This document shows, piece by piece, positions 42,516 through 64,000 of a stretch of DNA of 64,000 nt. The stretch covers positions 4,526,001-4,590,000 of the forward strand of contig OZ287761.1 of assembly GCA_965649765.1 (NCBI GenBank). Reading direction: 5' to 3'. The notes beneath the pieces were generated by a model. The model did not search any database and had not been told where the DNA came from. It was given only the letters and a program-made list of their open reading frames with translations. Origin of the DNA: Bispira polyomma (taxonomy: Eukaryota). The position numbers were made by a program, and so were the translations under genes. The number at the start of each line of letters is the position of its first letter. Position 1 is the stretch's first letter.

Positions 42516-42840
42516 TCAGTATCTGGGCAAGCCCCAGTAATTTGTTGTACAGTCATTGCAAGCTTTTTTACTCTTGCAAATGTCTGCAACCTTGTTCTTC
42601 TTGGTTCGCTTCTTTGTAAGTTTTCTGTTGCTACTTTTAGCAACCCGGTTTGGCATAAAAGTTTCGAAACCCATATCTGTATTCATATGTACACTGATGT
42701 CTGAAATACTGTTGGGTTCTTCATCCATATCTATTAGCCCAGTATCCGGAGGATTTTCACTTGTGATTGGTTCAGTGGTGTTGTTACGGCAACAGAAAAT
42801 CCACTGAAATCCTTTTGCTTTATATGGCTTCTTTGTTAAT
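42516..42840 (-). CDS. DEG/ENaC terminal exon (cytoplasmic tail ...NYWGLPRY*)
   Basis: Acceptor at 42841-42842 is in phase with ORF 42516..42728. Confidence 0.75.
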
Positions 42841-45800
42841 CTGTGAAAATATCAGTTTTAGATTGTGTTAAAATCTTAGTTTTATCACAAAAATAGACCT
42901 AATTTTATCACGTGGCCAAAATATTGTACCATAGACATTGCTTATTTATTGCTTTAAAAATAAGAAATGAGAAAAAATTTAAAGGCGGAATTGCTCATTT
43001 GAGTAAGAGTATATACTTTTGGTTTTTCCCCCAAATATTTCCACCCTGAATTAAGTCTACCTCACAATATGGACTAAATGCTTTGTTCAGTAGCTTATCT
43101 ATGTGATGCCAACTGGCCTAGGGGTTATACTGTTGAACCTCAAACTTGGTGTTCGTTCTATTTTCATTGTACAGGACATAGTTGTCCATCTTTACCTGAG
43201 AGTATAAATAGGTGTCCTAGCTTGGGTTGGGGAGCGGAGTTGCAATAAACTGGTATTTTGTTTAGTCCTCTAGAAATACTTTAAGTCACACCATGCCTAG
43301 AAACCCATAAATAAGATCCCGCCATATTGGCCATCAGGTTAAAAATTACCTAAACATGTTGGGGGAGCAATAATTTGCTTGGATAATAGTACAAAACGGT
43401 AGAAAATTTTTATTTTGAAGAGTAAAAGTGTTGATGAAGTCTAATATTTGGATTGTAGAATTTTAAATTAGTTGGGGTTTATGTCGCTTTCAACAGCTTG
43501 GGTCATATTCCGAAACCAGTTCTAAAGCACTGCAAACCACCGAACTATGGCAAGTACCTGACAATCTTGCCCGCATGAAGGAACATGATTCGAACCCACA
43601 TTGGTGAGAGGCCGGTGATTATGAAGCTAATGAAAGGAGGGTTTAGGTTATGATAAAGGTTCCATTATAGCTTGCTTCACCATTTATTTACCCCTGATAT
43701 GAGATTGAAATCCGCACTAGTATCATTCACCTGTAAATGAGGAGTACAAGAAAGTCTGCCCCGAGTTCTATCATCTCAAAGAGACTGAGTAGGCTGCATC
43801 CCAGCCACAGGCCAATGATGCCTCCAATGTCTGTGAAGAGCCGTGATAACTGACAAAACAAAACCAGTAACAAATGCACTGAGTCATTTATCATCTTGTG
43901 ATACTTAGACATGCTATTCTGTCATTTATCCCAAACAAAACTTTGCTCTTTCATAGGGTTTGGATAAAAGAGTTTCTACTGCAGTTGAAGTTTCTTTAGT
44001 TTTGGATTGAAAAAATAGTCCAACATATAAGCCCTTTGTCATGGTATCCATCTGAAATATTTTTTGTACATTTCTATTTCTTTTTGGATTACAGTACATG
44101 TACAAAAAAAAACATGTTATACATTTCATTTACATAATATTATTCTCTTGCATTTACAAGAGTAAAAAGAGTACAAGAGTTTTATTTACCTTTTATTTAT
44201 ATAATATTATTCACTTACAATTACATATATTGGTTGCTGTTTAACATTTTACATTAACATAAAAGTCTAGTCATAAATAGGCAAATCTTATTGAGTCTTT
44301 CATGTACAGTACAATGTACATGTATAACTAGAAACAATGCAATCAGTAGCAAGTTTTCCCGTTCATTGTGTTGCTTGACCTCTAGGTGACCTTTAATGAT
44401 TGTTACTCAATGGAGTCCATGTTACCCCTGGGTGACCTTTAATGAGTGTTACTCATTGTAGTTGATGTTAATCAATGGAACTTTTAAACAAAGAACAAAA
44501 TTTCAATAAAATTAAAGAAAGTAATTTAGAGAAGGTTTAAGAGTCTTTTTGTTTATTACCTTTGACATCTTCTAATGAATCCCCGCATGACAACTTATTT
44601 TAACTTCAATATCAGAGTTCAACAGTGGTGGCTATTTGATTCTATTCCAGCAATTAATAAACAACTCTGTATTATTATTTGCTTCAGTAAATTGCTGGGT
44701 CTGTATCAATAAAAGGTCTTCAACTTAACTTCACAATCATCTTTAAAGGTGTCTTGCTCTATATTATATCTTTGTGTACAAAAAAGATATCTAAAATCTG
44801 ACTACAATATTTGAGTGCCTCATTGCAACCTCTATTGAAATGAATAATCACACGTGAAGGTTATATTCCAATGAATAAGTATTTGAGTTTTAAGACCATT
44901 GATAACTACCTCCCCAGGTTCTTCTGAATGTACATGAATAAAGATAAATACATGTAGTAATTAATGATGAGAAGCTGGGAGTTGATGTATATATTACTGC
45001 ATTTTTTTCAACTAGAACCGAAAGGATTAAGACGTAATCTATAAGCATAATGTATACAATTTAATTACATATGTTGTCATTGATATGTAAAAGTTAAAAT
45101 TCAATGAACAGTATATTATTTGAAGACGTTCTTATTATTCCAAACTGCTAACAACCCTTCCTTTGATCTATACGTTATCCATATTTTCAGCTATGTTAAA
45201 CTATTCAAGCTGAAATTAGTACATGTATTACCAATTTCATTGAGCAATATAATCACAAATACACTTGATTATCAATTTATCGGGGGTATTTGTGGAATTT
45301 ATGGAAATCTTTTGAAAAGGAAAAATGTAAAAATAAATTGTAGTTAAATCCTAAAAATTTAATAATGAGAGTGGTATTTTTAATCCATCTGAAATGTCGA
45401 CTAATGCAGGCTAAGGTACCCAAGCCTGTATCCTTTCTTTGTGGAGCACAAACAGGCAGTTGAGGATTTGTCGTCATACATTTTTGACACCAGACGTTTC
45501 CAGAAACGTTCCCTCTGTTTCTTCTGACTTGGATACTCCATGTACATTTCACCCTGCAGAATTTGTAGGGCAACTGGACTCTCTGGTTTGCAAAAGATGT
45601 CACCGAGTTTGATGACAATCAGATGATGTTGGTTGAGAATGTATTCACGGTACATCTGTGTCAGTTCAAATAGAGGCCAGTCTTTTTGCAGATATTCTTC
45701 ACTAATGACGGCAATGTTTACTCTGCTTTGTGATATCTTGGATAAAATGCAATTTACCAATTCTACACCAATGTCGAAATCCCTGTAGTGAATGCATAAA

Positions 45801-48800
45801 CGGAACCCATATTTTTGTTCAAGGTCTTTCATTAAGACCTCATGAACCCAGAACCTATCCTCGCTACAGTAACTCACAAAGGCATCATATACAAAGTTGC
45901 TTTCCTCGTCTTGTGTGTTGTTGTGCTCCTGATTCTGTTTAAACCTGAGTCGATAACACCAGATCTTGATGGCAAATCTGTACCAACTAAGTATGAATGC
46001 CAAAAGAATGCCGCACTAACGCCCAGTACTGGCCATACAAAGCTGGGGAGTCCTGATTTACATGAGGAGGTACACATATCGCTGCTATTCACATCGACCA
46101 CTCTCACTTTTGTGCCATTGCTTAGTGCGCATGTGTAGTTGGCTTTGTTTGCCATGTTCAGACTGGCGTTGGCCTTTTGAATTGTTCGAACCATGTAGAA
46201 TGACTCTGCAGAACAGTTGCAGATCAGTGGGTTTCCGGTGAGATCCATGAACAGTGTCTCTTGTTCATTCAAAATCATCTCTAGATTCAAATCCATCACG
46301 TGAATCTTGTTGTAACTGAGACTGATTGACTGTAAGTTTGATCCAACATACTTTATTCTGTTGATCTGGGGGTTTCTTGATTTCTGAAGATCATGATTTG
46401 CCATGTACGCGTTGACAGCCTCCAACTGGTTGTGCGAGAGGTCGATAATTCTCGGGGTGTCTGGTGCCACGTCACCTAATCCAGGTTTCAGGCGAGGCAA
46501 GTTGTTCTACCTCAATGTGAGACACTGAAGAGATGTGTTTCTCAGGGGATATAAGTCCACCGTTGGATCAAACTCTGCGTCAAACATCTCATCGTCGGGA
46601 GACTGAAACTTATCCAGACGTAGTACCAGAAGAGGTTTGCCCTTCACTGCAGTCAGAAAACGCGCAAGCCCTCCTTTGCGGTCGAGTGTCCCTACATCTT
46701 GTAGGTCTAGTATTTGGAGCTGCTGGCAGTAATCGACAAAACGTCCAAGGTGATCTGTCCAATCCTCGATGTGAGCATTGATGTGAAGTTGTTTGATGCT
46801 CAGTGGTTCGGCTTTCACAGGCGTGTAGGTAAGCGAGTACTGCAGATGTTCAGGTGACCCTGCTTCCTGCATTAACCACAGAGATTCCAACTGCAGAAAC
46901 TGGATCTCTGTTAGATTCATGCTGTTGTTTTGTGAGCCCCTGCCTTTGATGGTTACCTGCAGTGTCTTTGTTTTCCGTGGCAGTCCTTGGAGAAAAGATG
47001 GGAGCTGATCTGCTTGAACTGAAGCTTGCACAAATTCTGCAGCTTCGTGGTCCACATAGTTTTTGTAGCATAATAACTTTAGTGCATTTAAGTTCATGCC
47101 TGGGATGTTGGTGTGACATTGGCTGTAGGACACGATGGTTAGAAGACAGAACCAATAGAGCAGCATTCTTGTAGAATTATGTATTATTAGATAATAGATC
47201 AACTTTATCACCATTAGTTATGCAGCTTTATTTAAAAGTCTCTAAATTGCTGGTACTCCTGTACAATGAATTCACCTTGTGCTGATGAAGTAATCACCAT
47301 AAGTTAATCGGGCCTTTTTAAATTCCCTGATCTCTGGTACCCATGTACAGTGAATTCATCTTGTATTGAGGAAGTTATCGTAAGCTGTTTAAATTCCCTG
47401 ATTTCTGATAGGATGAATTCACCTTGTATCCTGTATTGAGGGTTTTCCCCAAGACCCTTTAGTATACACACCCATACATGTTTAAAGCATTGCAAAATTT
47501 ACCTTGGTTGTCTTCCTTGTAATGGAGTAAGGATTGCAAAATTTGCTATAAATGTGAAATTTGCAACCGATAAAAAAGAATGTATAGTTTCAACAAAATC
47601 AAATAAAACAAGACAAAACTGAAGTCGAAGAGTAGTTCTAATGGGTTATTGTGTTCAAAGATGGAGATGTTTTACATCTCTATAGTTTTCTCAAAAGAGG
47701 TGGTGAAATTTATGCACGTGGAAAATTTTTGATACATTTTGTTGCCTTGTGGGTTAAGTTTTTTTTGCCAAAACTCCCCTCAAATTAATTTATGTAAAGC
47801 CTCAGTCACACATGGCCGGTATGGTAGGCGGTACTAGAAGGTAGCAGAAGATACTGGAACTTGTCTTTCCCCCTATTTAACCGGCTGTTCTATCTATGCA
47901 AAATATGCCCACTGAAACTTGACCAGGTAAGTTTTACAGACGGGAAAAAGACGATACTACTTCGATAGACTTACAGTAGTGTAACGGAAATAGGTGGAAA
48001 CTGGAGGAAGAGTTACAGTTTTGAAACAGAAATAAACGGAAATGGGCGGAAACACACAATTACAGGGACAGAAGACTTACAGTAGATTTAGTACTACCCG
48101 GAAATGGTCAAAACTACCCTGTCTCGCTTTGGTGAGTCAGAAATTTTGAACATCTTTAAAACCATCACCTACCACGGCCGGTTACAGACGGCAAGGGAAT
48201 TTCACAGCCGGTATGCCTGGATATTGCTACAGTATATATACGGCTACGGCAGGTATCAATATGTATACCGTCCCTAACCGACTTTCCATACCGCCAATAT
48301 CATACTGGGGCGGAAATTTTGAAGATTTGTTTCCATAAGATTTTTTTTTTGTTGAAGAAGGAAACAAAGCACTGCTGATTGTATTTCAATCTTATTTTTA
48401 GATTTTTTAACGTAGATAATATTTTTTTTGTTGAAGAAGAAAGTTAAGCACTGCAGATTGTATTTCAATCTCATTTTTACCCAATCAAGTTTGCATTGTA
48501 CAAACACTAATTAAAAGTAGTTATATATGCACTTGCAATAGACTATGGAACAGACTTGTACAAGTATAGCAAGTTTGATCACTTTTATTGCAGAATCTGT
48601 TGCCGTATTCTCATATTTTTTTGCACAATCTGTCTCCGTATTCTCTAACTGATTTAATCACAAATGAGGATATTTAAGTTCTTACAAATAGAGATAACTT
48701 TAGCTTGTGATCATTTATTTTAATAGAGGTTATAAATTCAATAGATGTTATAAATTTATAAAGTACATCTGTATTTATAAATATATAGCAGAACCTCTAT

Positions 48801-51800
48801 CAAACAGACTTCTGTTCTCTGTCTATTCAATAAAATCATTTTCACTCCTAGTTTAATATGAATGCTTGTTATTTTGTACAGAAAAACCTCTTTTATTACT
48901 GGAAACTTCAATTAGCCAAACCAAATCTTGCTCTCCCAACATGTTCGGATAAGAGAGATTTTACTGAACTTAATTGCTGTTGGTCGAAATTTGGACAACT
49001 TCGCTTTAGTTAATTATGAGAAGACAAATCGGATCAAGAGCAGTGGTGTTCACTTTTCGTGGCAAATGAATGAGACTGAACCATATTGGTTTTTGTTTGA
49101 CGTTTGTTATAGGGTTAGTAATCTACTTTCCAAATAAGGAGTATACGAATGAATTAATTTTGGGGGGAGTTTACATTTAGCTCAATCCTCAAGTTTGTAC
49201 CCTGTCATACCCTCATTATATTTATAGCGTAGCTCTGTATTTTCAAGTTTAATTTTAGCCAAGCTGATGTAGCTCCATCATTGGTTTCTTCATTGTATGT
49301 ATTTTATTTATCGTACGCTGCATGAAGGCAAATTATAATGGTACAATTGTTGAAAATATGTTTAATGGAAGTACTAGTATTGATCAAGTTTGTAATGAAG
49401 AACCTCTGTTTTAAACTTTCAAGTTTTTTTGAGTCAAACGATCATAAAAAGTTTCATAAAATAGATGAGGTGTTTTAATATAAAATTATAGCAATATATC
49501 TATGTACTATATGTACACTGTAGACAGTGAACATGGTAGATAACAAGTCAAATATTTAAATCGTTGAAACTTCAGGTTCTACTGCAAGTTGCATTTTTGG
49601 TAGGAAATTATCAGATGAAATCACTTGCCAAATACGCGGGTAACTCTTCCACTTTTTCAAAGTTAAGCTCCTCAAAGAAAACCTCCAGGCCAACCAGATT
49701 TCTCCTGTATCCTGTGAGGTCAAATGCTGATAGTAAATTGAGTCTGTCCTTTAAAATTCCTAACAGTGTTTTCTGAAAAATATAAGACCATAGAGTGATG
49801 TCATGGGAGGTGTCAAGAATTGCTCATAGATTCTGGAATGCAAGCCTCTTTGTAGACTTGCTTACAAGTTTTTACTGTTGGTGAAACACTGAATGACTGC
49901 ATTATTCAAGTTCCTATTCTGTTCAAAGGGAGTCAGCACTAGTGTTTTTTTTATAACTGCCAGTTTCTTCATTTTATCCTAAAGGTAATCTATGCACAGA
50001 GGGAAAAACTTTAAAAATCATAATGCCCTCATTGAAGGACCTTGCACAAGGTCTAGCCTCTTTGTGTCTATTGTTTTGTGAGATAGCAAAAGTCATTATT
50101 CTCTAGAATTGTTGTTGGGTATGTATGTATAAAACATGAATATATATTTAAATGCAGTGCTGAAAGTTGTGGTAAAAAGAATACGCTAGACTGTGTGAAG
50201 ACCATAGACCTTTAACTCTGACTTGGCAAATGGAGGATGTAGTAGAGGATGTGCTCGTGCATGAATGTGGGTGATTAAAATGTTAACTTTATATATGGTA
50301 AAAAATCAAATGAAGTCAGTAAAATTGAAATGCGTTGTCATTTTTATACTGAAAATAGCTGTAAATGCATAGTATGTGCCTGATTATACACAGGACAAAT
50401 GGTATAGGCTTTATATTAGTAAAACAACTCTTCACTCTCTGAGGTTAAATGAAAAAGCTAGCTTGTGTAGTTTTTTGTGAGACACTTACTTCATAATCCA
50501 CACTTGGCCATGATACAGAAGAGACACCATACTTGTACTTTCTCTCACTGAAAATATAAATACATAAACTTGTACATAAAGACCAGCCAAGGCAAGAGGC
50601 TAAACGAGTGGCCTTTTCCAGCAGGCTCATCAATGATGTTTCAACGTTGAATCAAAATGTGACATCACCATTGGTTGCAGGGTGAGAATAGAAACAGTAG
50701 TGCGTATCCTACTTGGATTTCGGGTTAAGACCAGCCAAAGAAAGAGACCAAATGAGTGGCCTTTCCCAGTGGACACATCAACGTTGGTTCAACGTTGAAT
50801 AAAAAGGTGAAATCACTTGGTTTCAGGGTTAAAATGCAAATGGAAACGAAAGTCCATATCCGACTTGGATTTTAGGTTAAGACCGCCAAGGAAAAAGACT
50901 AAACAAGTGAGCTTTAACCATAGTTGCAAAAGTTTCTTCCACATCCAATTCTTTGCACGATTTGATGACAACTCAAAAGGCATTTACTTGTAGATGTGTC
51001 CTTAAGGTATAGAGTGACTTAATCTGGAATACACTAAATGCTCCCATATTTTCATCCTTGAGGCTAAGGTAGAACCCTCGGCCTGTTTATTCTCAATGGC
51101 TTTTTCCTTGTGATCCTAGTGTCTCCCAACATTCTTGCATGCTCTTTCTGATGAAGATATTAATGAAATGCTTCATATAGTATCCTCTGCTACATGAATT
51201 AACATGACAAGAAATAGGACTTTAGACATAAAAAGAGTTTGCAGACCTTGCCAAACAAGAAAGTGATGTAATGGAAACATTTAATTGACATTAAATAGTG
51301 CTTTAGAGAAACAATTCTGTCTGTTCTTTTTTTCTCATCAATTAAAAACTTTAAGATATCTTTATCATGTTTTACTCACAAACATGGAAGATCGCAGTCA
51401 CAAGACAATTCGTTGTTGATAAACTTCTTTGTGATGTCTTGTCTGCACAGTTCTATTAAAATAGAGAATTTTAATGCATGGTGACATAAATTGCAGAATA
51501 AATATGGCTGTAGTGTGCAGGAAATAATAACGCTTAAGGAATTTTTAGACAATTGACATGGTTTCTGTTTCCACATGTAGAGGAAAGTACAAAATATATA
51601 TAAAATAACCCAATGGTTAATATTTTAGCATTTTGTGAAACTGTCATGAAAGTCTTGTGAATTTCAATAAAAATCAGTAACTACAATAAAATCTCTCGTG
51701 TAAACAACTTTGACAAGTGAACATTTTTCCCCTGATACTGTATGTGTTTTGCCTTACTTTAATGTTTATATCTTTTGAAATCCAATAGGAAAACTGAAAT

Positions 51801-54800
51801 ACTTGTAGGGGATTGGAAATAGCTTGATAGTGTCCAATAATATTTGAGATAACAGAAATTTTGTTAAAAAAGTACAGTTATCAGTTGTATCATAAATTGT
51901 AAAGTGACATGGATTGTTGGCCACCCAGGGGATTGAACTGTTACTCTAAAGCTAGGTGAGGGTAACATTCCTACTGAGGCTGGCCAAATAATATTGCAAA
52001 TTATCATCATATTTGTTTAAATATTGAGAAGTAACCAGTGTTGCCTGGTGTAAAACATTTAGTTTTTGTTGTTTAGTATAGAACAGTTAGAACAAAATAA
52101 CTCTACTACAGCAGGATTTCCACTTAATAGGGCGAAATCTAAATTCAAAAGGTTGTTGTTAGACTACAGATTTTTCTCCTTGTACTAGGAAAATCAGTTT
52201 AACAGAGTTCTGCTTGTTTAAGTTGAACTTGTCAAAAAAGCCATATTATCCACCGTAGTGCAATTCTTAGGCATTTACTGTCACAAATAGCACCCTGGTA
52301 ATGAGACCGTCATCATTAAGTCACACTACACGTTTCATATATTGTGTTTTAATGTACAAATGTTTTGTATTAAAGCTTTGTTAAATAGTTGACTGAAAAT
52401 TTCCATAAATTAACTGATTTTTTAAATGCAAAATTCCTCAGAATTTCCAGTTTCTTCTGTTTCTTCCAGTTTCTTCCACTTGTCAAGAAGATATTTTTTT
52501 TTTCCAAAACAACAAATCCAACCCTGGGTTTAACTGTATGTACTTATGGTCTTACCTTGCTCTTCATCATGTATATTACAAGCTACACTGTTGTTTCCAA
52601 AGGCCTCGCCCTTGATTGGGTACTGTGGGTCCCCGCAATGGCAACTTTTTACAATGTGAGCTTGATAGCAAGTCTTGGAACAGGCCTGGAATATAGTTTA
52701 TATCGATGTTACAGGGGTAGGGTGGATGCAAGTTATGATAAAATGATATTTATTTATGCTTGATTTATATAACTTCATACTATGAAATATAGCACATGTT
52801 TTGTGGTGTGTGAAACATGTGCAGACAATAATCTGACGTTATCATACTGCTGCTAAATTTAATTGTCTCTCGTGTTTTTGCTCAGCTGTTTGAACAATTA
52901 GAATCAATGTTCACAGAAAATACAGTGGAAAATTATACCAGAGCTGTATTGTATTTAGTAATTAGCTTGCAGAGTTTTTGACAGATTTGATCTGAGATGA
53001 CCTTCAGCAAGTTTTACCTGAATGTTTGTCTCGGATATCGAAATAACTTTAAAATACACTCTGTCTCGGATATAGAAATAACTTTAAAATACACTCAAGT
53101 TGAAGACAACAGGCTTGGGGTCTCCATCACTGTATTTGAAGTTGGCACTGAAAATTCCATTAAAAGGAATGGTCACAACTATAGGTTATTTGTAAGGATA
53201 CAGATCCAGGGGTATAAAAACTGAGCAAGTGCTCCCCAATAACGCATTGCTGTCAGTCAGTAAAGGGTTCAATATTAGAGAGGCTAATATTTCCTGTTTA
53301 CACGGGCGTTCACAATACCGGTCTGGTCAAAATACTGTCCGTTGCATTTTTAAAGAGTTTAACAAGGGAAATTAATATAAAAAACACATGCTCCTTCATC
53401 CCTATAAAATTAAGTACAGAATGCTTTATTTTATTGTGAAGAAATCTATGTTTGAAGCATTGAAATGTGCGTCGAACGATATTATGGCCCGATCGGTATT
53501 TTGAACGCCAGTGTAGAAACATGGGCTTTTTATGCTACCACATCTGATTGGAAAAGGACTTTAAAAGTCTTTGTATCATGTCTACAGCAGGCACATACTC
53601 TTTATCTTTGATTTTAATAATGGTGAGACCTAAAACTGGAATACATTTGCCAAGTTTTGTGCACAACAATATATAAGACTTTTCTCTACTGTGCTAAACC
53701 TTTCTGATGGTAATAATTTACTTACATTCAGACCATAGGTTGTATCATACAACTCTTCAAACACGTTCCTGGTCAGGTTTTTCCTCATATCACTGATGCA
53801 TGCGTATTCACCATATGGATGTGGGAGTCTCTGGACCTCCAGCTATGTCAATACATTGTTCACGTTACAGTAAATTATCTACAATATGCCACATTTCTGA
53901 AATTTGCCATACGATAAAACCTAGAACAATTTAAGCAATAGGTAAATGATAAGCATGCGGTCTTGCTATAAGCATATACTGTATTGCTTCTATTATCCAG
54001 GCAAATTCTTGATCTCAACTGGTCTGGCTAGGTTGTTGCTCCACTAGATAATTCAACTTAGACCCTCTTGTCAATGGCTTGTCATCCTACCAAAATATAT
54101 TCCTTGTCCAGGGCAGCCCTTTATTTTCCAAATAATTTGTTTCTGTCCCACCTTGTTAAACTATTAGACTCTTTACTTCAATGGTTAAGGTTGCAGTCCT
54201 GATGGCAATACCTATCCATCTACCAGCTAAGTAATAGGACCCCGCTGTGGCCTACTGGTTAGAAACGCCCGCTTTACAATCACTGACCTCTTGCCAATGT
54301 GGGTTCGAACCTTGCTTTTTCATTCATGTGGGAAAGTTTGTCAGGTAATTGCCGTAGTTCGGTCATTTAGAGGGCTTCAGCACTGGTTTCTACCGCCATT
54401 GAATCTGGTTATCATGATGTAACCTATGCTGTTAAAAACGTCCTAAAACTTAACTATATTCCAAATTCTACCTGGCAATACTACAACCAATTTCACATAT
54501 TTCAGCCTTCTAAAATACATACAAATTTTTATTGTATAGATTTCAACTAAACTAAAAAAAAATTATTGTATAGATTTCAACTAAACTAGAAGATGTTGAA
54601 CCTCTAGTGTTTCAATACAAATGTGTATTTGCACAGAAAGATTGTTGTATTTCTAACTTACAAACTTACATACAAAGCTGTAAACCTGTGTCAGCCCCCA
54701 TATCTTGCCTCATTGTTGTCTTTCAGCAGGCTTACCAGGGAAAACAGAATTTCAGTCACTAATACCAGGACTAGTAAATGATTAGATCCTATTCCTTCTC

Positions 54801-57800
54801 TGTTGCAGCACCTACCCTATGGAATAATTTACCAACCAATATACGATCCCAGGAAACCCTCACTGGCTTTAGAAGTAACCTTAAGACCCACCTCTTCACC
54901 CTTGCGTAGCCTCCATAGACATCTTTCTCCTTCACGTCACCCTGATCTCAAATTCGCTTTGGAAACAGACTATGATTTTTGCAACTTTGCCAATGATGGT
55001 GCGCTTTAGAAGGTGCCTGGCATCATTTATGCCCATTAAAAATCTATCATATCATCATCATATCACTTACAGCCCTGATAGCGATGCCTGTCCCTCGACC
55101 AGGTAAAACGACCAGTCCTTCATCCTCTGGAAAAGACATCTGGTCGCCGGGATGCACCACTAGCACCACACCCGCAGCCTCCCCAATCTTAGGGATGTAC
55201 TCGTACTGGCCAATATCAAGCTCCATGCGCAGACCTATAAAGTGTGGTCAAAAATACTTAAATGACTTTGGAGTTTGTAATATTACATGTGTATTCATCT
55301 TAACCCAGAAGTGTTTCTAGTGATCAGTTTAAAAAGCTCAAGCCCTCTTGGTTGGTTTAACATTATCCTGCTATTTGAGACCGTGTTCTACACAAAACAC
55401 TAGTCACAGACCTACCATAAGGTGTCTTTCTATTGATCTGGTTCTATTTTGTCTATCTCTACAATAGTATTAAAAGTTAATATAATAATAGTCTTTATTA
55501 CAAAAATTTACATCCTGTATAAATCTTTTTTTACAAAGCGTTCTATAATTGTGTAACATTTATCATGGGCATACCACAACGTCTCCCTTTTCTTGTGGCT
55601 ATTTTATCATTACCTCTACAAATCTTTTTTTTTACACAGTGTTGTAATGGACATACCATAACGTCTTCCTGTTTTTGAGGCTGTTCTATCATTACCCTCT
55701 ACAAATCTTTTTTTACACAGCTTTCTATAATTGTGTAACATTTATCATGGGCATACCACAGCGTCTACCTTTTCTTGTGGCTATTCTATCATTACCGCTA
55801 CAAATCTTTTTTACACAGCGTTCTATAATTGTGTAATATTTATCATGGGCATACCATAACGTCTTCCTTTTCTTATGGCTATTCTATCATTACTCTCTAC
55901 AAATCTTTTTTTACACAGTGTTGTAATGGACATACCATAACGTCTTCCTGTTTTTGAGGCTGTTTTATCATTGCCCTCTGCAGAACTGTTCCACCCAGCA
56001 TTATATACATAACAGTTGCCATAGACAGGATCAAAGAACCAATCAAAGTCTCTGTATGAAATATCAAAAACACTGTATATAGAGATTTGCTGATATTTCA
56101 CAAAAAAACAGGAAACTCCCTCCGTACGTATAGCTTATGCTTTCATAATAGCCAACCCCCACTATTCAATAAATACAGTTAAAATTTTGCACAGAAAACT
56201 ATATTTTTTTATAGCCCATCCCCTATATTTCCTTAAACATTTCTTTATAGCCCATCCCATACATTTTCTTTAAATTCAAGTTAAAAGCCCATGGATCATT
56301 CAAAGAGTGTTTAGGGTGTATTGAAATCAACATTCTTGAGATGAACTACTTGGCACAGACAAATAATTACTTCCTTGTAAATTTCACCTGTTTTTAAAAA
56401 TCAAAAAAAAAAATGAAGTACCTAGATGCTATGCGATCTGTCTTCACAAGAAAATCCGCCCATATTGTATTGTGAAATAATTGAATTAAATGACCGCTTT
56501 TTAAATAAGAGTTCACATACTTCTCTTCACATTTGATTCCCATGTAGGAACAACTTGCTATCAGATCATTCAGTGTGTACCCAAGGTTTCTTTTCGTTTG
56601 GTCATCCATTTCTGCCAGTATCTAGGAAGAGTTGATGTAACTTAAATATTCAGTGTTAAATATATGGAAAGAGAATAAGAAAAACAGAAAATATCAGGGT
56701 TTTTTGCCAAAGTTCAATGACTTTGTAAATGATATGTAAATGAGAAGCTTAAACTATGAATAAAACATCCACCTGGTACTGTGTTGTAAGAAGCTTAAAC
56801 TATGAATAAAACATCCACCTGGTACTGTGTTGTAAGAAGCTTAAACTATGAATAAAACATCCACCTGGTACTGTGTTGTGAAAAGCTTAAACTATGAATA
56901 AACATCCATCTGGTACTGTGTTATGAGAAGCTTAAATTATGAATAAAACGTCCCTCTGGTACTGTTTTGTGAGAAGCTTAAACTATGAATAAAACATCCT
57001 TCGGATGCTGTGTTGTGAGAAGCTTAAACTATGAATAAAACATCTATCTGGTTACTCTGTTATGAGAAGCTTAAACTATGAATAAACATCCATCTGGTAC
57101 GGTGTTATGAGAAGCTTAAACTATGAACAAACGTCCATCTGGTACTGTGTTGAAATTTCCGAGAGTTCAGTAAAAACCTGGGTGTACAACGCCTTTCCAA
57201 GTGGTACTAGTAATTTACATCTGTACCATTAAGGCAGTATTCATAGAAAGGTATTAGTCTTGATTTAGTCTTGAGCTTAACATTAATGTCTCAAACATCT
57301 AAAACTGCTGTACTGTTCGTGTTAAGAGCAAAGTAGACACTAAGCAAATGTCTTGTTTTATTGACGACGATAAAAATCTGAACCTTCTTGGCTAAAATCA
57401 AAGAATAGAATAGAATATATTTGATTATAGTGTCACGTAAGATACGCATACAAAATCAATTATTGACATATATCACGACAAACCCAGCCTCATACAGGCT
57501 TAGAAGACACTATGGACACATTGTATAAAAATAGTGACCTTTTAAAGTATAATTTAGAGAGAATGTATGATAAAAAAGATAACATAATAGATTAATCTAA
57601 ATTGTATAATAACATTCTTCTTTTACACCATGCTTTTTGTATATAAGATGCTAAACAATAGACTTTTGTAGTCGACATTATAGTTGTAAAAAAATCAGTA
57701 ACACGTATTGTTACATTTATATTTAATTCTTGATATTGTAATTTTCTTGAAGTGTTTTTCATCTTCAACTGAGTTGCTATTACAAAATACACATAATCTA

Positions 57801-60800
57801 TTTTCAGTTGAAAAAAAAACAACAAAATCTTAAGTCCTTAGACTTATTAGTTAAGCCTAAGACCTTTAGTGAATACCACACCTGGAAATAGCTTACCTGG
57901 AACAACTCTGGTGAATATCACACCTGGAAATAGCTTACCTGGAACAACTCTGGTGAATACCACACCTGGAAATAGCTTACCTGGAACAACTCTAGTGAAT
58001 ACAACACACGGAAATAGCTTACCTGGAACAACTCTAGTGAATACCATATCTGGAAATAACCTACCTGGAACAACTCTTCTTGTTTTCTGAACTCGTCTCG
58101 AAGCCCTTCCTGCAGAATTAGTATATTTAATCTCTGTAGTGTCATTGAGAATTGTTTTAACAGCATAACTAACAACAATATTATTATTCTTTTAAAAGAT
58201 CTCTACAATATATCTATTTATATATACAATATTTTTCAATTTCAGGAACAATGTTGAAATTTAAATTCTACTTACTCCTCTTCTAACATTCACTTGGTCA
58301 ATTATTGTTTGCAAAATGGAGCGTACACTATAATAACATTGATTCAGACATGTATGGATTCAATTTAACTGCATGGTATATGATTGTTGAAGTCGTGAAT
58401 CATTTGACCTATTTCACATACTAAACTCCACATGCTGAACATTGTCTACCTCTAACCAACATGCTTAATACATTAAGTTTCAGTATTTGTAATTGCCTAC
58501 TTTATTGAACTATCTCCGTACTAATGATGTTCACGATTCTGAATACCCTTGGCATTGGCTACCCAGTATACTCCGTACAAAGTCAATGTACATTATGAAA
58601 GTGGCCAAGATCAAGGATGGCCAAAGGTAACTAAAACCTGTACACATAGTGAAAGAAACTGAAAGATATGCTCTAGATACTAGACGTATAATATATAGTA
58701 TGTCTGTACCAATTAGGTTTCATTTGTCAAAAGTATTAGTGTTGTTACCAGTAGAGACAGTACAAACTGACACAAATATGCTCCAAATACTAGTAAAATA
58801 AGAAGGCATTTCTGTAACAAAAAGATTACAGTTTATCTTTATACAGACAGTTGTTACCAGTATATAGTACAAACTGACCAAGATATGCAGAAGATATCTC
58901 TTCTTTCTTTCAGTAACCCCAAGAGAATTTCGGTTTCCTCTGAACAATAATAACATTGATTCAGATATGTATGGCTTAAATTTAACTTGGTGGTATATGA
59001 TTGTTGAAATGGTGGATCATTTGACCTATTTCACATGCTGAACACCACATGCTGAACATTGTCTAGCTCTAATCAACATGCTTAATACATTAAGTTTCAG
59101 TATTTGTAATTGCCTACTTTGGTTTGTATCAAAGACTCTGATTGGTCGGAAGTCAGGACTGGTAGATTACCTGTGTGAGATCTATGGGTAGGTTATCCAT
59201 ATCATCGAGCAGGAAATCCGAGAGGAGTATGTTGTCGGGTAGTAGAACATTGGGTAGCGGGATATGAGGGACAGGTGTTGTACTGGTGACCTGCTCCGTT
59301 GTGGTGACTGGTGGTTCTGTGAATAGAGTCTCGTCTATAATGTATTAATGCAGTATAGATAACCTTTTTTTTTCATATATATAGTACACAATATACATTA
59401 TAAAAAACTTACACAAACGCATGGAATGGAATACGACAAGCTCAAATTCGTCATTCTGAAATTACTGATTGATTACTTGTTTTCATATCTAGTTTCAGAG
59501 ACAATTCAATCTTTTTTAAGATTTTACCAAAAGATTCTTCGTAAATAGTGTGTTTCTTTCAATTTCCATAGAGAATCTTTATTATTCCTGGTTTATTTTT
59601 TAAGGTCAATAAAAAGTCTTCCATTAGAAAAGGGTTTTAATTTGTTTTTCTGTTGTTTATAAACCATTTTCCCAGAAGGATTACATAATTTATTGAGAAG
59701 AGTGTGCTGTCCTGACATGGTAGACCAAAAAACACTTCACACGTGGTGAGTTCTAGGTCTTGACTACTGAAAGAGTTAAAGCTAACAGGGTGTTAATGTT
59801 TTGCCAAAAGTTTACAGTTGATTTGCAGTAAATTAGGTGATGCTCTAAAATATAACATCTTCTGAGAATAGTTTTATTATCCCAGTTCGCAAAGCCCACC
59901 TCAAATTATTAGATGTGATTGTGATCCTGCTTTAAAGTCCTACCTGTAATAAGAGCCATAGAAACGGTGCTGCACTGTTTTCACAAAGCACCTACTAGTA
60001 TATACTAAGGAGAAAGGATCTGCTCAATTTCATAGATAGTATGTTTCCATGGTAAAACAAGGCATACTACTTAGTGGGATACCAAATAGTTGACTGTGTA
60101 ATAGTATTTTGTGGGATCTTGTAAAATAGGGGGATGGAATCAAAGTCAATCTCACTTAGTTGATATTCAAAAACAGCAAATAGTACAATGCTCACTATAA
60201 GCTACATTATAAAGTATTTAAACACACTTCACTGACCACTAATTCTGATGACAAACACTTTGAATTCAAGGATACCGTTAAATTTCCAGATATACACTTA
60301 ACTTCTAATACCTGTTGGTATAAGTTGTCTGCAGTACAACTTATCTTCTATTTCATTTTTACTCAGTAAGACACTTAGATCATGCCAGACAAACTCTGCA
60401 CTGGGTGGAATCCCCTCAGGTATTTTGAAGTCGCTGCCATTGGACGGAATTGCAAATGGCATCATCCAGGATGAATCATTGTAACCTGAACAGAAAATTT
60501 ATTGTTCGTTTCAAGTAGGTTTACAGTTTGAAAGAGAGAGTATCAAATGTTATCTATGATTATTTACTGTTGACAGACAATGTTAATCAGTGGTAAGTAG
60601 TAAATAAGAGCCTGGATATGAACATTCTTGTTTCCTGCCAGGTAAACAAAGCTTCCCCCAAATATAAGCACTCCACAGATGATCTTATTTAGATTCTGTC
60701 TTATATTACTTCGATGGAAAGTAGGGGGCCACAGTGGCCTAGTGATTAAAAGGGCTTGCTTCACAATCACTGATCTCAAATCACTGTAGGTTAAAATCCA

Positions 60801-63800
60801 GTTAATCAGTCGATGGTTTACACAGTGGCTTCAACACTGGTTTCTTCCACAATTGAATCTGGCCATCTCGATATGACCTAAACGGTTGAAAGCAATGTAA
60901 AAACCCCACCAAATTCAAATTCCTTGTGATAGAAACATTTAGAAGAAGTGTAGTGAACTATCTCCGTACTAATGATGTTCACGGTTCTGAATACCCTTGG
61001 CATTGGCTACCCAGTATACTCCATACAAAGTCAATATACATTTTGAAAGTGGCCAAGATCAAGGATGGCCAAAGGTAACTACTACTTGTACACATAATGA
61101 AAGAAACTGAAAGATATGCTCTAGATACTAGACGTATAATATATAGTATATCTGTACCAATCAGGTTTCATTTGTCTAAAGTATTAGTGTTGTTACCAGT
61201 AGAGATAGTACAAACTGAAACGGATATGCTCCAAATACTAGTAAAATAAGGAGGCATTTCTGTAACAAGAAGATTACAGTTTGTCTTTATTCAGACAGTT
61301 GTTACCAAGTATATAGTACAAACTGACCGATATATGCAGAAGATATCTCTTCTTTCTTTCAGTAACCCCAAGAGAATTTCGGTTTCCTCTGTTAAACTCA
61401 CCAAGAATGCTGGATCCAGAGCTGCCTGTATGTTATAGAATAGTCTACCAGTTGAGCTTAGATCACTTAAAAACACTTTCTGGGTTTAGGAGAAAACTTA
61501 AAATCTATCTCTTTAAACTTGCTTACTTCCTTTAGTTTCTTCCCTGTACACCTCCACATCCTTACAACCTGGCCTAAGTTTCTGCTCTTCTCGATTAGTT
61601 AATTACTTCATTGTGCTGTTGAACTTTAAAAGATGCCTCGCATCAATAAGGCACTTTATCAATGCAACTACAATACCTACTAACTATAATACCATAATAT
61701 ACTAAGGTATATATAAAGATCAATACCAATAAGGTTCCAATCTTCTGTGATCAAACTGGTATTCCCTGTACACAGTGTGATGAGGTGACTCTTCTGCTGT
61801 CCTGACGTCACCCAGCCATTGTTGTAAGATGCAATAAACGTCCCATTCCCCTCTGTGTTTGTGACCTATTAAAAACAGTTCAGTAGTTTATTTAGAGTTT
61901 AAACTATATTTCAACATCTGTGAGTTATTGCACAACGGGCAGTTTACTGGTGGGGAAAAAAGCAGTATGTGTAGTTTAGTTATTTGGTCAATATTTCTGT
62001 ACTGTAAACTAAGGGCCTTTATCATGTCTATTACCCATATAAAATGTCAATTCATTTTAGGAAAAAACACTGTAAGTGTAATTTTAGACAGCATTGTCTG
62101 TCAATATTTTCTTTAGAGTTTAAACTATATTTCAACATCTGTAAGTTATCTCACAACGGGCAGTTTACTGGTGGGGGAAAAAAGCAGTATGTGTAGTTTA
62201 GTTATTTGGTCAATATTTCTGTACTGTAAACTAAGGGCCTTTAGCATGTATATTACCCATAAAAAATGTCAATTCATTTTAGGAAAAAACACTAAGTGTA
62301 ATTTTAGACAGCATTTTATTCTGGTTTTTAGAATTTTAGAATCTATCATGTCAAGAAGTATTTCTAATTTTCATAAAAGACTTTAAAAGCAAAAATTTGG
62401 GCAGAATAAAATTGACCAACTGAATTAATTTACTTAAGTAAATTGAACCTTGCTGTCGAGTACAAAACCTGTAGTTACTAGCATACCAACAGAGACATTG
62501 TCTAGTGCAAAACCTGTGGTTGCCAGCATACCAACAGGGTTGCTGTCTAGTACAAAACCTGTGGTTACCAGTATACCAACAGAGATATTGTCTAGTGCAT
62601 AACCTGTGGTTACCAGCATACCAACAGGGTTGCTGTCTAGTACAAAACCTGTGGTTACCAGTATACCAACAGATATTGTCTAGTGCAAAACCTGTGGTTA
62701 CCAGCATACCAACAGGGTTGCTGTCTAGTACAAAACCTGTGGTTACCAGTATACCAACAGAGATATTGTCTAGTGCAAAACCTGTGGTTACCAGCATACC
62801 AACAGGGTTGCTTTCTGGTACAAAAAATGGTGGTTACCAGCATACTAACAGGGTTGCTGTCTAGTACAAAAACCGATAGTCACTAGCATGCCAACAGGGT
62901 TGCTGTCTAGTAAAACAACCTGTGGTTACCTCAAATGCAACAACTTGTGTGCCACATGGAATTCTTCTTTCAAATACATCATCAGATGTCACAATAAGTT
63001 CCTTCCCATCCACATAGACCTTTGTGACCTCATCTCCCTTGGCAGTCAGAATGTACTGCCCATCACCTGCAACAATATTAAATGGATCAACCCTGAATAA
63101 TACTGCTGAATGTTTATGAATTGGTGCAAATAAATACATTCAAATCCATTGATGAAAATCACTCAAAGGAAGACTTCAGAGTTGTCAAGCAGTGTTTATG
63201 CACTGGTAAAAATAATATTCGAACCCATATTGGTGAGACGTCAGTGATTGTGAAGCAGGCGCTTCTAACCACTAGGCCACCACAAACCCCTTAACTTAAT
63301 TTAAATTCTGAACAAATGAAAATATCAATAGCACTTTGTGAGGAGAAACAGGCCGCCAGCAAAGGATAATAGCAAAACATGGAATATAGTGCTTACAGCG
63401 ATGCTGTCTACAGTACATAGTATCCTCTCCTTGTTTGTCCCACACCCACTCAGCATCTTCTGGTATAAACTGCAGTGGTCCATACGTGTCTGTCCAGATA
63501 TCCTCTACAATAACGGGCATCTCCCAGTCTGTGTCGTCATAATCTGCAAGAAGTAAAGTAGTTTAGAAACTTTGGAGTTTCAGGTCTTCACAAAACCTAA
63601 TAACGATTCCAGATTCACTAGAGTTTTACAATAAGCATGGGGATTAAGAATTATTTGATTTTCCAAGTATACAAGAAACAGATTTGTACAATCATTGAAT
63701 TTCAGGCATACAAGAAACAAAAAGGTTGTATATTTGTTGGATTTTAAGTATACAAGAAATATAGGTTTAAAATGATTTGAGGTATACAAGTAACATAGTA

Positions 63801-64000
63801 TTTTAGCATCGTTTGACTGCAAAGACACATAGGATTTTAGAATCCTAGGATAATATAATCCTTTTAATTTAGGTTATATGATACTGCAGATATATCTTTG
63901 CTTCACCTTTAGACATCCAATCCCCACTGACCAAGCTGTTATTACAGACTAGAATGCCTTGTCCTGTGCTCCAGCTGTCTTTTAAGTAGGACGCCCGCAG
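42516..64000 (-). CDS. DEG/ENaC (amiloride-sensitive sodium channel family) gene, 17 exons in window, N-terminus beyond right edge
   Basis: Joined exons give 2229 nt in one frame to TGA at 42516. Family hallmarks: YGNCYVYN, GLRMELDI, GVVLVVH..FPEDEG, RLPHPYG, Cys-rich thumb (CSKTC..CHC..C..CDCDLPC), WPS, FFEELNFE, TM2 DIGGIIGLWLGCS. Confidence 0.93.
43731..43849 (-). CDS. DEG/ENaC TM2 exon (LSRLFTDIGGIIGLWLGCSLLSLFEMIEL)
   Basis: AG/GT; GxS selectivity filter (GCS). Confidence 0.93.
45401..47166 (-). pseudogene. Intronless Toll-like receptor (signal peptide, LRRs, LRRCT, TM, TIR) nested in a DEG/ENaC intron; in-frame TAG at 46507-46509 and 1-nt frameshift at ~46004
   Basis: MLLYWFCLLTIVSYSQC signal peptide; LQILDL, IDLSHNQL and ISLSYNKI LRRs; NPLICNC LRRCT; hydrophobic TM; TIR boxes YDAFVSY, LCIHYRDF and FW. 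Confidence 0.88.
49629..49772 (-). CDS. DEG/ENaC exon (KTLLG...FFEELNFEKVEELPAYL), GC donor
   Basis: AG acceptor; donor TTG|GCAAGT falls at the expected pre-TM2 boundary. Confidence 0.88.
50490..50547 (-). CDS. DEG/ENaC exon (ERKYKYGVSSVSWPSVDYE)
   Basis: AG/GT; WPS motif. Confidence 0.9.
50578..50920. repeat. ~150-bp tandem repeat x~2.3
   Basis: aagaccagccaa...gagtggcctt...caacgttgaat units at ~50579, 50727 and 50878. Confidence 0.75.
51380..51452 (-). CDS. DEG/ENaC exon (LCRQDI...CDCDLPC)
   Basis: AG/GT; thumb cysteines. Confidence 0.9.
52556..52685 (-). CDS. DEG/ENaC exon (ACSKTCYQAHIVKSCHCGD...)
   Basis: AG/GT; thumb cysteines. Confidence 0.9.
53726..53842 (-). CDS. DEG/ENaC exon (LEVQRLPHPYGEYAC...TYGLN)
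   Basis: AG/GT; RLPxPY motif. Confidence 0.9.
54238..54467 (+). mobile_element. tRNA-derived SINE family B
   Basis: Full-length plus-strand copy with A box TGGCCTACTGG and B box GTTCGAAC. Confidence 0.8.
54760..55065 (+). mobile_element. L2-clade LINE 3' end with (ATC)n tail
   Basis: FSVAAPTLWNNLPTNIR...FRSNLKTHLF; the tail abuts the splice donor at 55069-55070. Confidence 0.75.
55071..55234 (-). CDS. DEG/ENaC exon (LRMELDIGQYEY...FPEDEG...IAIRA)
   Basis: AG/GT; palm/beta-ball motifs. Confidence 0.92.
55520..55990 (-). repeat. Tandem array of DEG/ENaC exon 3' end plus donor (4 extra copies)
   Basis: catacca(t/c)aacgtct...tatcattac units at ~55570, 55652, 55752 and 55850, plus the real junction at 55931. 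Confidence 0.9.
55936..56051 (-). CDS. DEG/ENaC exon (DFDWFFDPVYGNCYVYN...GRRYG)
   Basis: AG/GT; YGNC motif. Confidence 0.92.
56521..56621 (-). CDS. DEG/ENaC exon (ILAEMDDQTKRNLGYTLNDLIASCSYMGIKCEE)
   Basis: AG/GT; family G..L..LI..C.Y.G..C motif. Confidence 0.9.
56741..57150. repeat. ~45-bp minisatellite x9
   Basis: agaagcttaaactatgaataaaacatccacctggtactgtgttgt repeated head to tail. Confidence 0.92.
57868..58076 (-). repeat. 42-bp tandem array of the micro-exon donor junction x5
   Basis: gtgaataccacacctggaaatagcttacctggaacaactct units. Confidence 0.92.
58065..58109 (-). CDS. DEG/ENaC micro-exon (EGLRDEFRKQEELFQ)
   Basis: Phase 0-0; joins to ILAEMDDQTK. Acceptor position is uncertain (an alternative lies 24 nt upstream). 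Confidence 0.65.
58507..58945. repeat. Intronic ~440-bp segment duplicated at ~60955-61392; flanked by a ~170-bp duplicate (58330-58500 / 58947-59120)
   Basis: Near-identical sequence beginning gaactatctccgtactaatgatgttcacg. Confidence 0.85.
59171..59316 (-). CDS. DEG/ENaC exon, Thr/Pro-rich linker (PPVTTTEQVTSTTPVP...IDLTQ)
   Basis: AG/GT, phase 1-0, GC-richer open frame. Confidence 0.78.
60312..60485 (-). CDS. DEG/ENaC exon (YNDSSWMMP...AEFVW...LYCRQLIPT), module copy B
   Basis: AG/GT, phase 1-1. Confidence 0.82.
61727..61865 (-). CDS. DEG/ENaC exon (VTNTEGNGTFIASYNNGWVT...EDWNLIG), module copy B
   Basis: AG/GT, phase 0-1. Confidence 0.82.
61891..62315. repeat. ~220-bp tandem duplication
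   Basis: tttagagtttaaactatatttcaacatctg... at 61891 and 62112. Confidence 0.85.
62450..62930 (-). repeat. ~43-bp minisatellite x~11 beginning at a splice donor
   Basis: gtctagt(a/g)caaaacctgtggttaccag(c/t)ataccaacag units in A/B alternation; the array ends at the real donor GAG|GTAACCACAGG. Confidence 0.9.
62930..63066 (-). CDS. DEG/ENaC exon (CDGQYILTAKGDEVTKVYVDG...VVAFE), module copy B
   Basis: AG/GT, phase 1-0. Confidence 0.82.
63397..63543 (-). CDS. DEG/ENaC exon (YDDTDWEMP...AEWVW...MYCRQHR), module copy A
   Basis: AG/GT, phase 1-1; paralogous to 60312-60485. Confidence 0.82.
63907..64000 (-). CDS. DEG/ENaC exon (partial; LRASYLKDSWSTGQGILVCNNSLVSGDWMSKD), inserted module copy A
   Basis: Open frame to donor AAG|GTGAAG; paralogous to exon 61727-61865. 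Confidence 0.75.

Follow-up and report, generated by a model that had tools for sequence, protein, structure and literature searches.

A Bispira polyomma DEG/ENaC reading frame that carries tandem modules related to CBM67 and the Pleurotus lectin POL

Introduction

Invertebrate DEG/ENaCs are for the most part orphan channels, and the tether model of their gating has no extracellular anchor built in. A locus of Bispira polyomma raises the question of whether a channel of this family can carry lectin-like modules in its own ectodomain and, if so, what kind of module they are and what they might bind. We analysed a 64,000-nucleotide stretch (the window; contig OZ287761.1 of GCA_965649765.1, positions 4,526,001 to 4,590,000), for which an earlier note had proposed such an architecture.

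Results

Seventeen minus-strand exons, from 64000 to 42516 of the window, splice into a single open frame of 742 amino acids that is interrupted by no stop, using AG acceptors at 16 of 16 sites and 15 GT donors plus one GC donor. The frame runs through a partial module A, a complete module B, a linker exon and the DEG/ENaC finger, palm, thumb and TM2, which confirms the earlier note's reading frame through linker and modules upstream of the finger and palm; the channel exons reach well beyond the interval 59171..64000 that the note had given. The exons are as follows.

63907..64000, minus strand: module A exon 2, truncated at its 5' end by the window edge; phase-1 donor; aligns with exon B2
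63397..63543, minus strand: module A exon 3; phase 1-1; Y-D-D-T-x-W, A-E-W-V-W and Y-C-R motifs
62930..63066, minus strand: module B exon 1; phase 1-0; holds the first strands and, in model numbering, the candidate Ca2+ pair D92-E93
61727..61865, minus strand: module B exon 2; phase 0-1; candidate Ca2+ ligand N129
60312..60485, minus strand: module B exon 3; phase 1-1; carries the permuted closing strand
59171..59316, minus strand: linker exon; phase 1-0; Thr/Pro tract of about 20 amino acids, then a Leu/Asp-rich segment
58065..58109, minus strand: finger exon; probable alpha-2 helix, as we assign it
56521..56621, minus strand: finger alpha-2/alpha-3 into beta-3; weak match to gamma-ENaC 6bqn_C 189-220 (E 1.4)
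55936..56051, minus strand: palm/beta-ball exon of the spliced model, G-N-C-Y motif
55071..55234, minus strand: palm/beta-ball exon; PF00858 E 3e-4; profile to beta-ENaC E 7e-8
53726..53842, minus strand: palm-to-thumb exon of the spliced model
52556..52685, minus strand: Cys-rich thumb exon; PF00858 E 1e-3
51380..51452, minus strand: thumb exon of the spliced model
50490..50547, minus strand: beta-10 / S-x-W-P exon of the spliced model
49629..49772, minus strand: knuckle and beta-11/12 exon; GC donor; PF00858 E 0.12
43731..43849, minus strand: TM2 exon; degenerin-site Thr codon 43834-43832; G-C-S filter; PF00858 30.6 bits; FaNaC E 2e-4
42516..42840, minus strand: last exon of the spliced model, cytoplasmic tail and stop

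We take G-N-C-Y in exon 55936..56051 to be the palm/beta-ball motif and S-x-W-P in exon 50490..50547 to be that of beta-10. A TLR-like gene is nested on the same strand in a later intron of the channel gene, and a 42-bp minisatellite behind the finger exon supplies further in-frame donors. An Rfam search gave no matches.

The assignment to the DEG/ENaC family holds on several exons scored by PF00858, namely palm (on a 54-residue exon), thumb, where ten Cys fall within model residues 436-527, and TM2, where the score exceeds the cut-off of 23.6 bits and G-C-S stands at 612. The palm profile matches ENaC, ASIC and FaNaC chains, and the best solved structure varies by exon (beta-ENaC for the palm, FaNaC for TM2). 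Both the G-x-S filter and the residues that line the pore are intact. The degenerin site is occupied by Thr, seen here in one genome only and encoded by a codon one base from Ala; in the sequence file of PMC9822975 the word TDIGG occurs 0 times and G/S/A-DIGG 79 times. According to the accessible text of that paper, Thr at this site opens several DEG/ENaCs but left NeNaC3 unopened.

Neither TM1 nor the post-M1 motif was found in any of the six frames of the 64-kb window, the HG motif is likewise absent from it, and the gene runs off its edge at 64000 on the 5' side. Because TM1 and the post-M1 motif are not in the window, we infer, rather than observe, that the modules follow TM1 and belong to the ectodomain. 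Between modules and finger there is no exon for TM1 or the post-M1 motif, so any 5' exons of the channel would be found beyond the module exons. The product might instead lack TM1 altogether and be an EGAS-like single-pass protein in which a signal peptide and adhesion modules precede a partial ectodomain and TM2, with an accessory or non-conducting role. The lack of TM1 in the window speaks for this, as does a supplement record matching the egas-4 primer at its start, which has a signal-like segment and what are presumably EGF-like repeats. C. elegans EGAS-1 to -4, whose name (EGF plus ASC domain) is given in PMC10424705, likewise join repeated modules outside the cell to a DEG/ENaC domain, and that paper reports EGAS proteins to be without current in oocytes; their modules are EGF rather than CBM67-like, and they apparently begin with a signal peptide. 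An intact pore lining and filter sit poorly with a non-conducting protein, and TM1 and the post-M1 motif are present in most of the long insert-bearing records read from other species (uncounted). We consider a TM1-less product very improbable.

Searches for relatives of the whole gene returned exon-sized relatives or nothing. With the palm exon we obtained three matches among 40 candidates, all exon-sized, and with its profile 4 of 1802, none of them a full-length homologue. A profile of exons A3 and B3 matched 0 of 71 sequences in one search and three in a representative library, among which P0004, exon-sized and 51% identical to exon B3, is a true exon relative; P0005 and P0006 were rejected as repeat-driven artefacts. 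Since no full-length homologue was found, it is the splice logic that carries the fusion of modules and channel. Among local GT sites (leave-one-out) the linker donor ranks at the 97th percentile, the acceptor downstream is likewise at the 97th percentile, and both fall inside the range of the core channel junctions with matching phases; the donor of B2, at the 68th percentile, is weak. The linker exon could be terminal, because its unspliced frame stops 5 codons past the donor, and the module exons might then constitute a gene of their own for a secreted tandem lectin, nested on the same strand in a channel intron, or else be skipped in the channel mRNA. This gene already hosts the TLR-like gene in just such an arrangement, and the phase-1 symmetry would permit clean skipping of entire modules. 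Yet the linker junction is strong and phase-matched, and the sole AATAAA in the 1061-nt intron lies about 650 nt past the stop, near what we estimate for chance at 68% A+T. We regard separate or skipped modules as improbable, and modules and channel as probably joined in one transcript.

The modules are a genuine repeat. A and B align locally with a score of 106, reached by 0 of 2000 shuffles (mean 27, maximum 51), and identity between exons A3 and B3 is 40%. The earlier note had described at least two copies of a three-exon module; the repetition stands, with only B complete and the first exon of A outside the window. Module B spans three exons with intron phases 1, 0, 1 and 1, so that its outer bounds are phase 1 and its internal ones 0 and 1, and copy A has phase-1 introns at both equivalent positions within the window, in keeping with the symmetric phase-1 boundaries noted before. 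The motifs quoted as common to both copies are present in the translated exons, and the modules do sit just ahead of the finger helices that precede beta-3. The linker is a different matter, since it had been called mucin-like: its Thr/Pro-rich part comprises only the first 20 residues (12 of 20 T, P or S), is non-repetitive and thus falls short of a mucin-type PTS domain, and the remainder is Leu/Asp-rich. A 45-bp minisatellite at 62450-62930 has a Pro/Thr/Ser-like frame on the plus strand and was rejected as coding, being in the B1-B2 intron and outside the model.

To what family do the modules belong? Single module exons gave nothing useful in Pfam, PDB sequences, plasmids or Atlas and matched neither POL nor 3W5M among PDB sequences, a weak GH2 galactose-binding-like lead (0.86) being the only one. 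The connection came through a bacterial family. An HMM of bacterial modules matches module B over its full length at 36.7 bits (best shuffle 7.1), and with the same HMM the half of module B that played no part in picking the bacterial loci reaches 21.7, against 11.2. Over 1554 window segments its best match is module A exon 3 (E 1e-5). By hhalign, exon B1 (84%, E 8e-6) and an alignment of B3, A3 and P0004 (85%, E 6e-6) align to the bacterial profile, and exon B2 by itself does not. The bacterial profile in turn matches POL (E 1.8e-42) and the S. avermitilis rhamnosidase 3W5M (E 1.1e-18), so the homology of module B to CBM67 and POL is transitive.

The bacterial set began with 107 loci, 104 of which gave segments of at least 120 amino acids; L001 and L002 were removed as unrelated, a 70% identity filter left 53, 38 could be trimmed and 34 entered the final alignment A4, with L007, L012 and L027 (long-insert subtype) and L090 (truncated) left out. 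Going by record title, loci L003-L107 are largely from Myxococcota, Planctomycetota and Verrucomicrobiota, and their module is extracellular; because they were picked by a motif scan and the sample is biased, they say nothing on gene transfer. The bacterial modules have the same permuted strand order as module B, with best pairwise identities of 22-25% (E 5e-6 to 8e-5). An N-terminal Cys pair in common with some of them is not significant (both in 3 of 28 rows, p 0.22).

The predicted fold of one bacterial homologue, L009, which we used as a proxy, is a beta-jellyroll (pLDDT 96) that superposes on POL (Z 14.3) and 3W5N (Z 13.7) over 116-118 residues at 2.0 A, its residues 119-144 remaining unaligned to the POL and CBM67 structures. 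This model of the homologue supports a galactose-binding-like jellyroll for the animal module, narrowed to one related to CBM67 and POL. The galactose-binding-like half of the fold suggested earlier is thereby retained and the PA14 half dropped: exon B1 scores 13.3 bits with PF07691 (gathering cut-off 24), and of the bacterial modules 1 of 34 rows matches at E 0.006 and the PA14 chain 6qdi gives E 0.33. The W-x-W...R strand that opens the POL/CBM67 domain is the last of module B, directly before the linker. By sequence comparison, then, the module is related to CBM67 and POL through circular permutation and is a member of neither; like POL it occurs in tandem, and it differs in having four extra Cys and introns. 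The hosts of CBM67-like lectins in the review table of PMC11186620 are archaea, bacteria, oomycetes and fungi only, whereas the present host is an animal.

The binding site gives mixed signals. An aromatic in the loop that follows the Y-V-D-G strand serves in sugar stacking, and the later Asn/Asp, in the N129 column, is presumably a Ca2+ ligand. In the accessible text of PMC11512411, the adjacent D-D/N pair has a Ca2+ role in CBM67/POL-like lectins. Module B keeps the first Asp (D92, in a column that is D in all 34 bacterial modules) and N129 (D/N in all 34), has E93 where the bacterial rows have D or N (20 D, 14 N), and shows a gap where every one of the 34 has Trp, a column occupied by W in 3W5M and F/Y in POL; in copy A the equivalent positions are beyond the window. 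With two candidate Ca2+ ligands kept, Glu at the third and the aromatic missing, sugar binding by module B is uncertain, and the aromatic loss weighs somewhat against strong binding. The fusion could therefore be real and its modules blind to sugar, acting as a structural spacer, a protease shield or a protein-binding surface on the finger. That would suit the altered site, the divergence of the copies in exon 3 and the many unrelated domain types found in this region of other DEG/ENaCs, which suggest a tolerant site; it is harder to reconcile with the retention of D92 and N129, the persistence of the exon-3 relative in another genome, and a nearby Phe in the shortened loop that could provide the aromatic. 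We judge sugar-blind modules unlikely, though a serious candidate.

Large inserts are not peculiar to this gene. Published DEG/ENaC sequence sets contain many domain inserts, or cassettes, after the post-M1 motif, and those of marine invertebrates carry cargo other than CBM67-like modules, which by its motifs we take to be LDLa, F-type-lectin/F5-8, LamG, PAN, MAM and kringle domains; WSC is named by record title. In supplementary file 1 of PMC10507113, large inserts follow the post-M1 motif or precede the finger helices in Owenia G051248 and G051249, Saccoglossus Sakowv30034138m, Ptychodera 1g15400, amphioxus 237150R, Platynereis Contig10257 and Macrostomum A0A267G1X8. Owenia G051249 shares the present layout (beta-rich domain, Thr/Pro tract, finger, beta-3), a comparison of layout and not of descent. 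The main text of that paper has no match for 'LDL' or 'lectin', though its supplement shows the cassettes, and in the open-access literature we found no paper on the wider cassette-insert pattern. Three DEG/ENaC supplements contained no words of the CBM67-like module or irrelevant ones only; these were exact words that miss diverged copies, one file being line-wrapped and another limited to the first 400 residues per record. With large cassettes, and tracts rich in Thr, already on record behind the post-M1 motif of other marine-invertebrate DEG/ENaCs, the novelty claimed for an unrecognised architecture was overstated: extra domains in this region are known.

Discussion

Our best explanation of the locus as a whole, held tentatively and at slightly less than an even chance, is an ENaC-branch DEG/ENaC subunit, encoded by one gene, that is basally open and tuned by a glycan-binding, lectin-like appendage. 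Exon shuffling and tandem duplication would have inserted at least two permuted CBM67/POL-related jellyroll modules, together with a short O-glycosylatable spacer, into the variable part of the finger that separates alpha-1 from alpha-2. In vertebrate ENaC the GRIP domain fills this gap; there it is an inhibitory tract, in contrast to the lectin-like tandem here, and the present model has no optimal furin site (R-x-K/R-R) in its first 600 residues, where the one minimal R-x-x-R stands at the module A/B junction. The pore would lean open through the degenerin-site Thr, and the modules may bind both Ca2+ and the glycans of mucus, matrix or microbial surfaces, in contacts that are weak but multivalent (at least six modules per trimer). 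Such a tether could localise the channel and, acting through the finger-thumb interface, shift its open probability.

Alternatively, a glycan that is soluble or microbial, such as rhamnose or a galactoside, could gate the pore directly, making the channel an ionotropic sensor of sugars or microbes. The table in PMC11186620 gives Gal, GalNAc, GlcNAc and L-Rha as sugars bound by POL-type lectins, and the modules occupy a place known as a hot spot of gating. However, a flexible Thr/Pro spacer between module B and finger fits tethering better than tight allostery, the binding site is degenerate, and the degenerin-site Thr suggests basal opening and not a closed channel opened by ligand. We think direct gating the least probable of the readings considered here.

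For a basally open, tethered channel, the lectin-like modules point to a testable class of candidate ligands, Ca2+-dependent glycans, and the degenerin-site Thr might allow a current to be measured without knowing the ligand. The locus would also bring CBM67-related domains to animals, which the review table in PMC11186620 does not list among their hosts. A bolder reading, that glycans acting on animal CBM67-related modules control a DEG/ENaC current and that the channel belongs to a cassette-swapping class of marine invertebrates, is doubtful at present. If it were true, the family would include a modular system of ionotropic receptors for the sugars of mucus, matrix or microbes, in which swapping cassettes into the finger would yield new ligand or tether specificities.

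Gene model of the channel

The channel gene was modelled as 17 exons on the minus strand, from 64000 to 42516, giving 742 codons plus a stop when spliced, with 16 AG acceptors, 15 GT donors and one GC donor. The exons encode, in order, partial module A (two exons), module B (three), the linker, finger, palm, thumb, knuckle, TM2 and tail; intron phases in module B are 1-0-1-1, and the linker exon runs from phase 1 to 0. The palm, thumb and TM2 exons each have a PF00858 match. Among solved structures, the palm is best matched by beta-ENaC (E 7e-8) and TM2 by FaNaC (E 2e-4), which bears out the DEG/ENaC identity proposed in the earlier note. Relatives of the palm exon (58-89% identity) are exon-sized rather than full-length. 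Two exons past the linker there is a weak alignment (E 1.4) to the gamma-ENaC segment preceding beta-3, suggesting an insert position upstream of the late finger helices.

HG, TM1 and post-M1 motifs were not found in any frame of the window, which places any 5′ channel exons beyond the module exons; the channel gene would then enclose the latter. An EGAS-like protein without TM1 would equally lack these motifs in the window; we consider it distinctly improbable. Splice sites were ranked with a leave-one-out matrix. Among local GT sites, the donors of the six module and linker exons reach the 68th to 97th percentile (82-98 for ten core donors); for the acceptors of the six exons running from A3 to the first finger exon, the percentile is 93-99 (43-97 for ten core acceptors). 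Enclosure is no proof that the modules are spliced in, since the linker exon, read through its donor, meets a stop five codons further. A lectin unit separate from the channel could use that stop; set beside the splice-site ranks, such a unit, or a skipped one, appears improbable. Sequence searches with the module and palm exons returned no full-length homologous protein, so the module-channel fusion is predicted from this genome's gene model, with no second species.

Several other features lie within the channel gene:

49629, minus strand: the single GC donor, opening the intron in which the TLR-like gene is nested
45401-47217, minus strand: single-exon TLR gene with a signal-like start, LRR and TIR (E 4e-16), sharing the channel's strand and nested in its 5.8-kb intron ahead of the TM2 exon
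57867-58077: intronic 42-bp minisatellite
62450-62930: intronic 45-bp minisatellite
58327-59120 and 60951-61391: 440-bp segment present twice (95% identity), in two introns
58503-58942: 440-bp copy flanked by 177-bp direct repeats (92% identity)

The TLR-like gene is interrupted by an in-frame stop at ~46507 and changes frame near 46000, indicating a pseudogene or sequence errors. Both minisatellites start at splice donors, which recur along the arrays; the 42-bp one supplies the small finger exon with several extra in-frame CAG/GT sites, and the 3′ end of this exon may vary through them. The 440-bp segment is possibly a small mobile element or a local duplication.

Elsewhere in the window we note:

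~1800-22100, minus strand: multi-exon importin-beta-1-like gene (PF25574, E 3e-11; HEAT repeats)
17559-19678, plus strand: hAT transposase remnant (zf-BED, dimerisation domain) in an importin-beta-1-like gene intron
27512-29292 and 35614-38961, plus strand: fragmented remains of non-LTR retroelements (RVT_1, E 2e-28 and 1e-8; zf-RVT)

With a GC content of 29-42% in 2-kb bins, intron-rich genes and LINE and hAT remnants, the window is animal DNA, and its gene content suggests a marine invertebrate.

Identity of the module

Modules A and B align with a score of 106, reached by none of 2000 shuffles, and we regard the repeat as real. The likeness of the three-exon copies previously proposed, at least two in number, thus stands; A is partial (two exons) in the window. 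P0004, an exon-sized protein relative from another genome, shares 51% identity with exon B3, the match stopping at the same residues.

Single module exons were too short for useful matches in Pfam, PDB or Atlas. Bacterial genomes were scanned with the motif common to A3 and B3, generalised using a consensus, and all 107 matches were in frame. An HMM of 53 non-redundant bacterial segments scored 36.7 bits over the length of module B (best of 2000 shuffles, 7.1). A second HMM, from the bacterial part upstream of the selecting motif and hence independent of the selection, scored 21.7 bits against the first half of B (best shuffle, 11.2). Among 1554 six-frame segments and stored proteins, exons A3, B1 and B3 were the top window matches.

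The AlphaFold2 model of one bacterial member is an all-beta domain (pLDDT 96), agreeing on this homologue with the beta fold predicted earlier. Foldseek matched it to the Pleurotus lectin POL and the S. avermitilis rhamnosidase structures 3W5M/3W5N; a separate structural superposition gave Z 14.3 for POL and Z 13.7 for 3W5N. A 34-row bacterial profile matched the same two proteins (E 1.8e-42 and 1.1e-18). Only model residues 1-118 align, and the last strand corresponds to the opening stretch of POL and CBM67, so the module, judged from the bacterial homologue's model, is a circularly permuted CBM67/POL relative. A PA14-type fold, as first suggested, found no support.

The bacterial loci (L003-L107) represent a widespread permuted CBM67-like module almost without Pfam coverage: PF08531 is found in 3/34 members, and the first member matches nothing, yet models at pLDDT 96.

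Candidate binding site, linker and degenerin site

In POL-type domains, according to the sections of PMC11512411 consulted, two neighbouring Asp residues hold the Ca2+ used in binding sugar. At this position module B has D92-E93, where bacterial rows have D (34/34) and then D or N (34/34), and N129 aligns with a D/N column. Module B has a four-residue gap where all 34 bacterial rows carry an invariant Trp, whose role we take to be sugar stacking. The equivalent positions of copy A lie beyond the window edge. The candidate site of module B is partly retained, and its binding may be weak or changed. An appendage without sugar binding would suit the missing Trp, and the retained D92 and N129 speak against it; we think it unlikely.

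The linker, previously called mucin-like, is Thr/Pro-rich in its first 20 residues only; a mucin domain was therefore rejected, and the exon is read as a short spacer.

The degenerin site, the residue preceding the conserved TM2 Asp, is Thr (codon 43832-43834, minus strand), a single base away from Ala and seen in one genome only. In the parts of PMC9822975 consulted, natural residues at this site in its anemone channels are Gly, Ala or Ser, and Thr opened five of these channels, but not NeNaC3; its sequence file has no TDIGG against 79 G/S/A-DIGG. Tentatively, and at slightly less than an even chance, we favour a basally open ENaC-branch subunit whose finger-borne modules would form a multivalent, Ca2+-dependent tether to glycans, localising the channel and tuning it. 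Direct gating of the channel by sugar would sit less easily with the degenerin-site Thr and seems very unlikely.

Precedents

Supplementary file 1 of PMC10507113 was covered in parts 50-52 of 67, over the first 400 residues per record. There, large inserts follow the post-M1 motif in many DEG/ENaCs of hemichordates, annelids, amphioxus and flatworms. These include Thr-rich tracts, and some records are titled 'WSC domain'; Owenia G051249 has the same order as here: domain, Thr/Pro tract, finger. Given these cassette-bearing channels and the Owenia layout, this kind of architecture, which the earlier note found unfamiliar, already exists. CBM67-like words were absent from the searched portions of published DEG/ENaC sequence sets, exact words being liable to miss diverged copies. 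Other inserts in the same supplementary records presumably resemble LDLa, F-type lectin, LamG, PAN or MAM domains. Titles and abstract openings yielded no literature on lectin-bearing DEG/ENaCs or animal CBM67, and 'LDL' and 'lectin' have zero matches in the main text of PMC10507113. In the portion of PMC11186620 consulted, a table gives CBM67-like lectins in prokaryotes, oomycetes and fungi and does not list animals. The diverse ectodomain cassettes of invertebrate DEG/ENaCs (PMC10507113) deserve a systematic survey.
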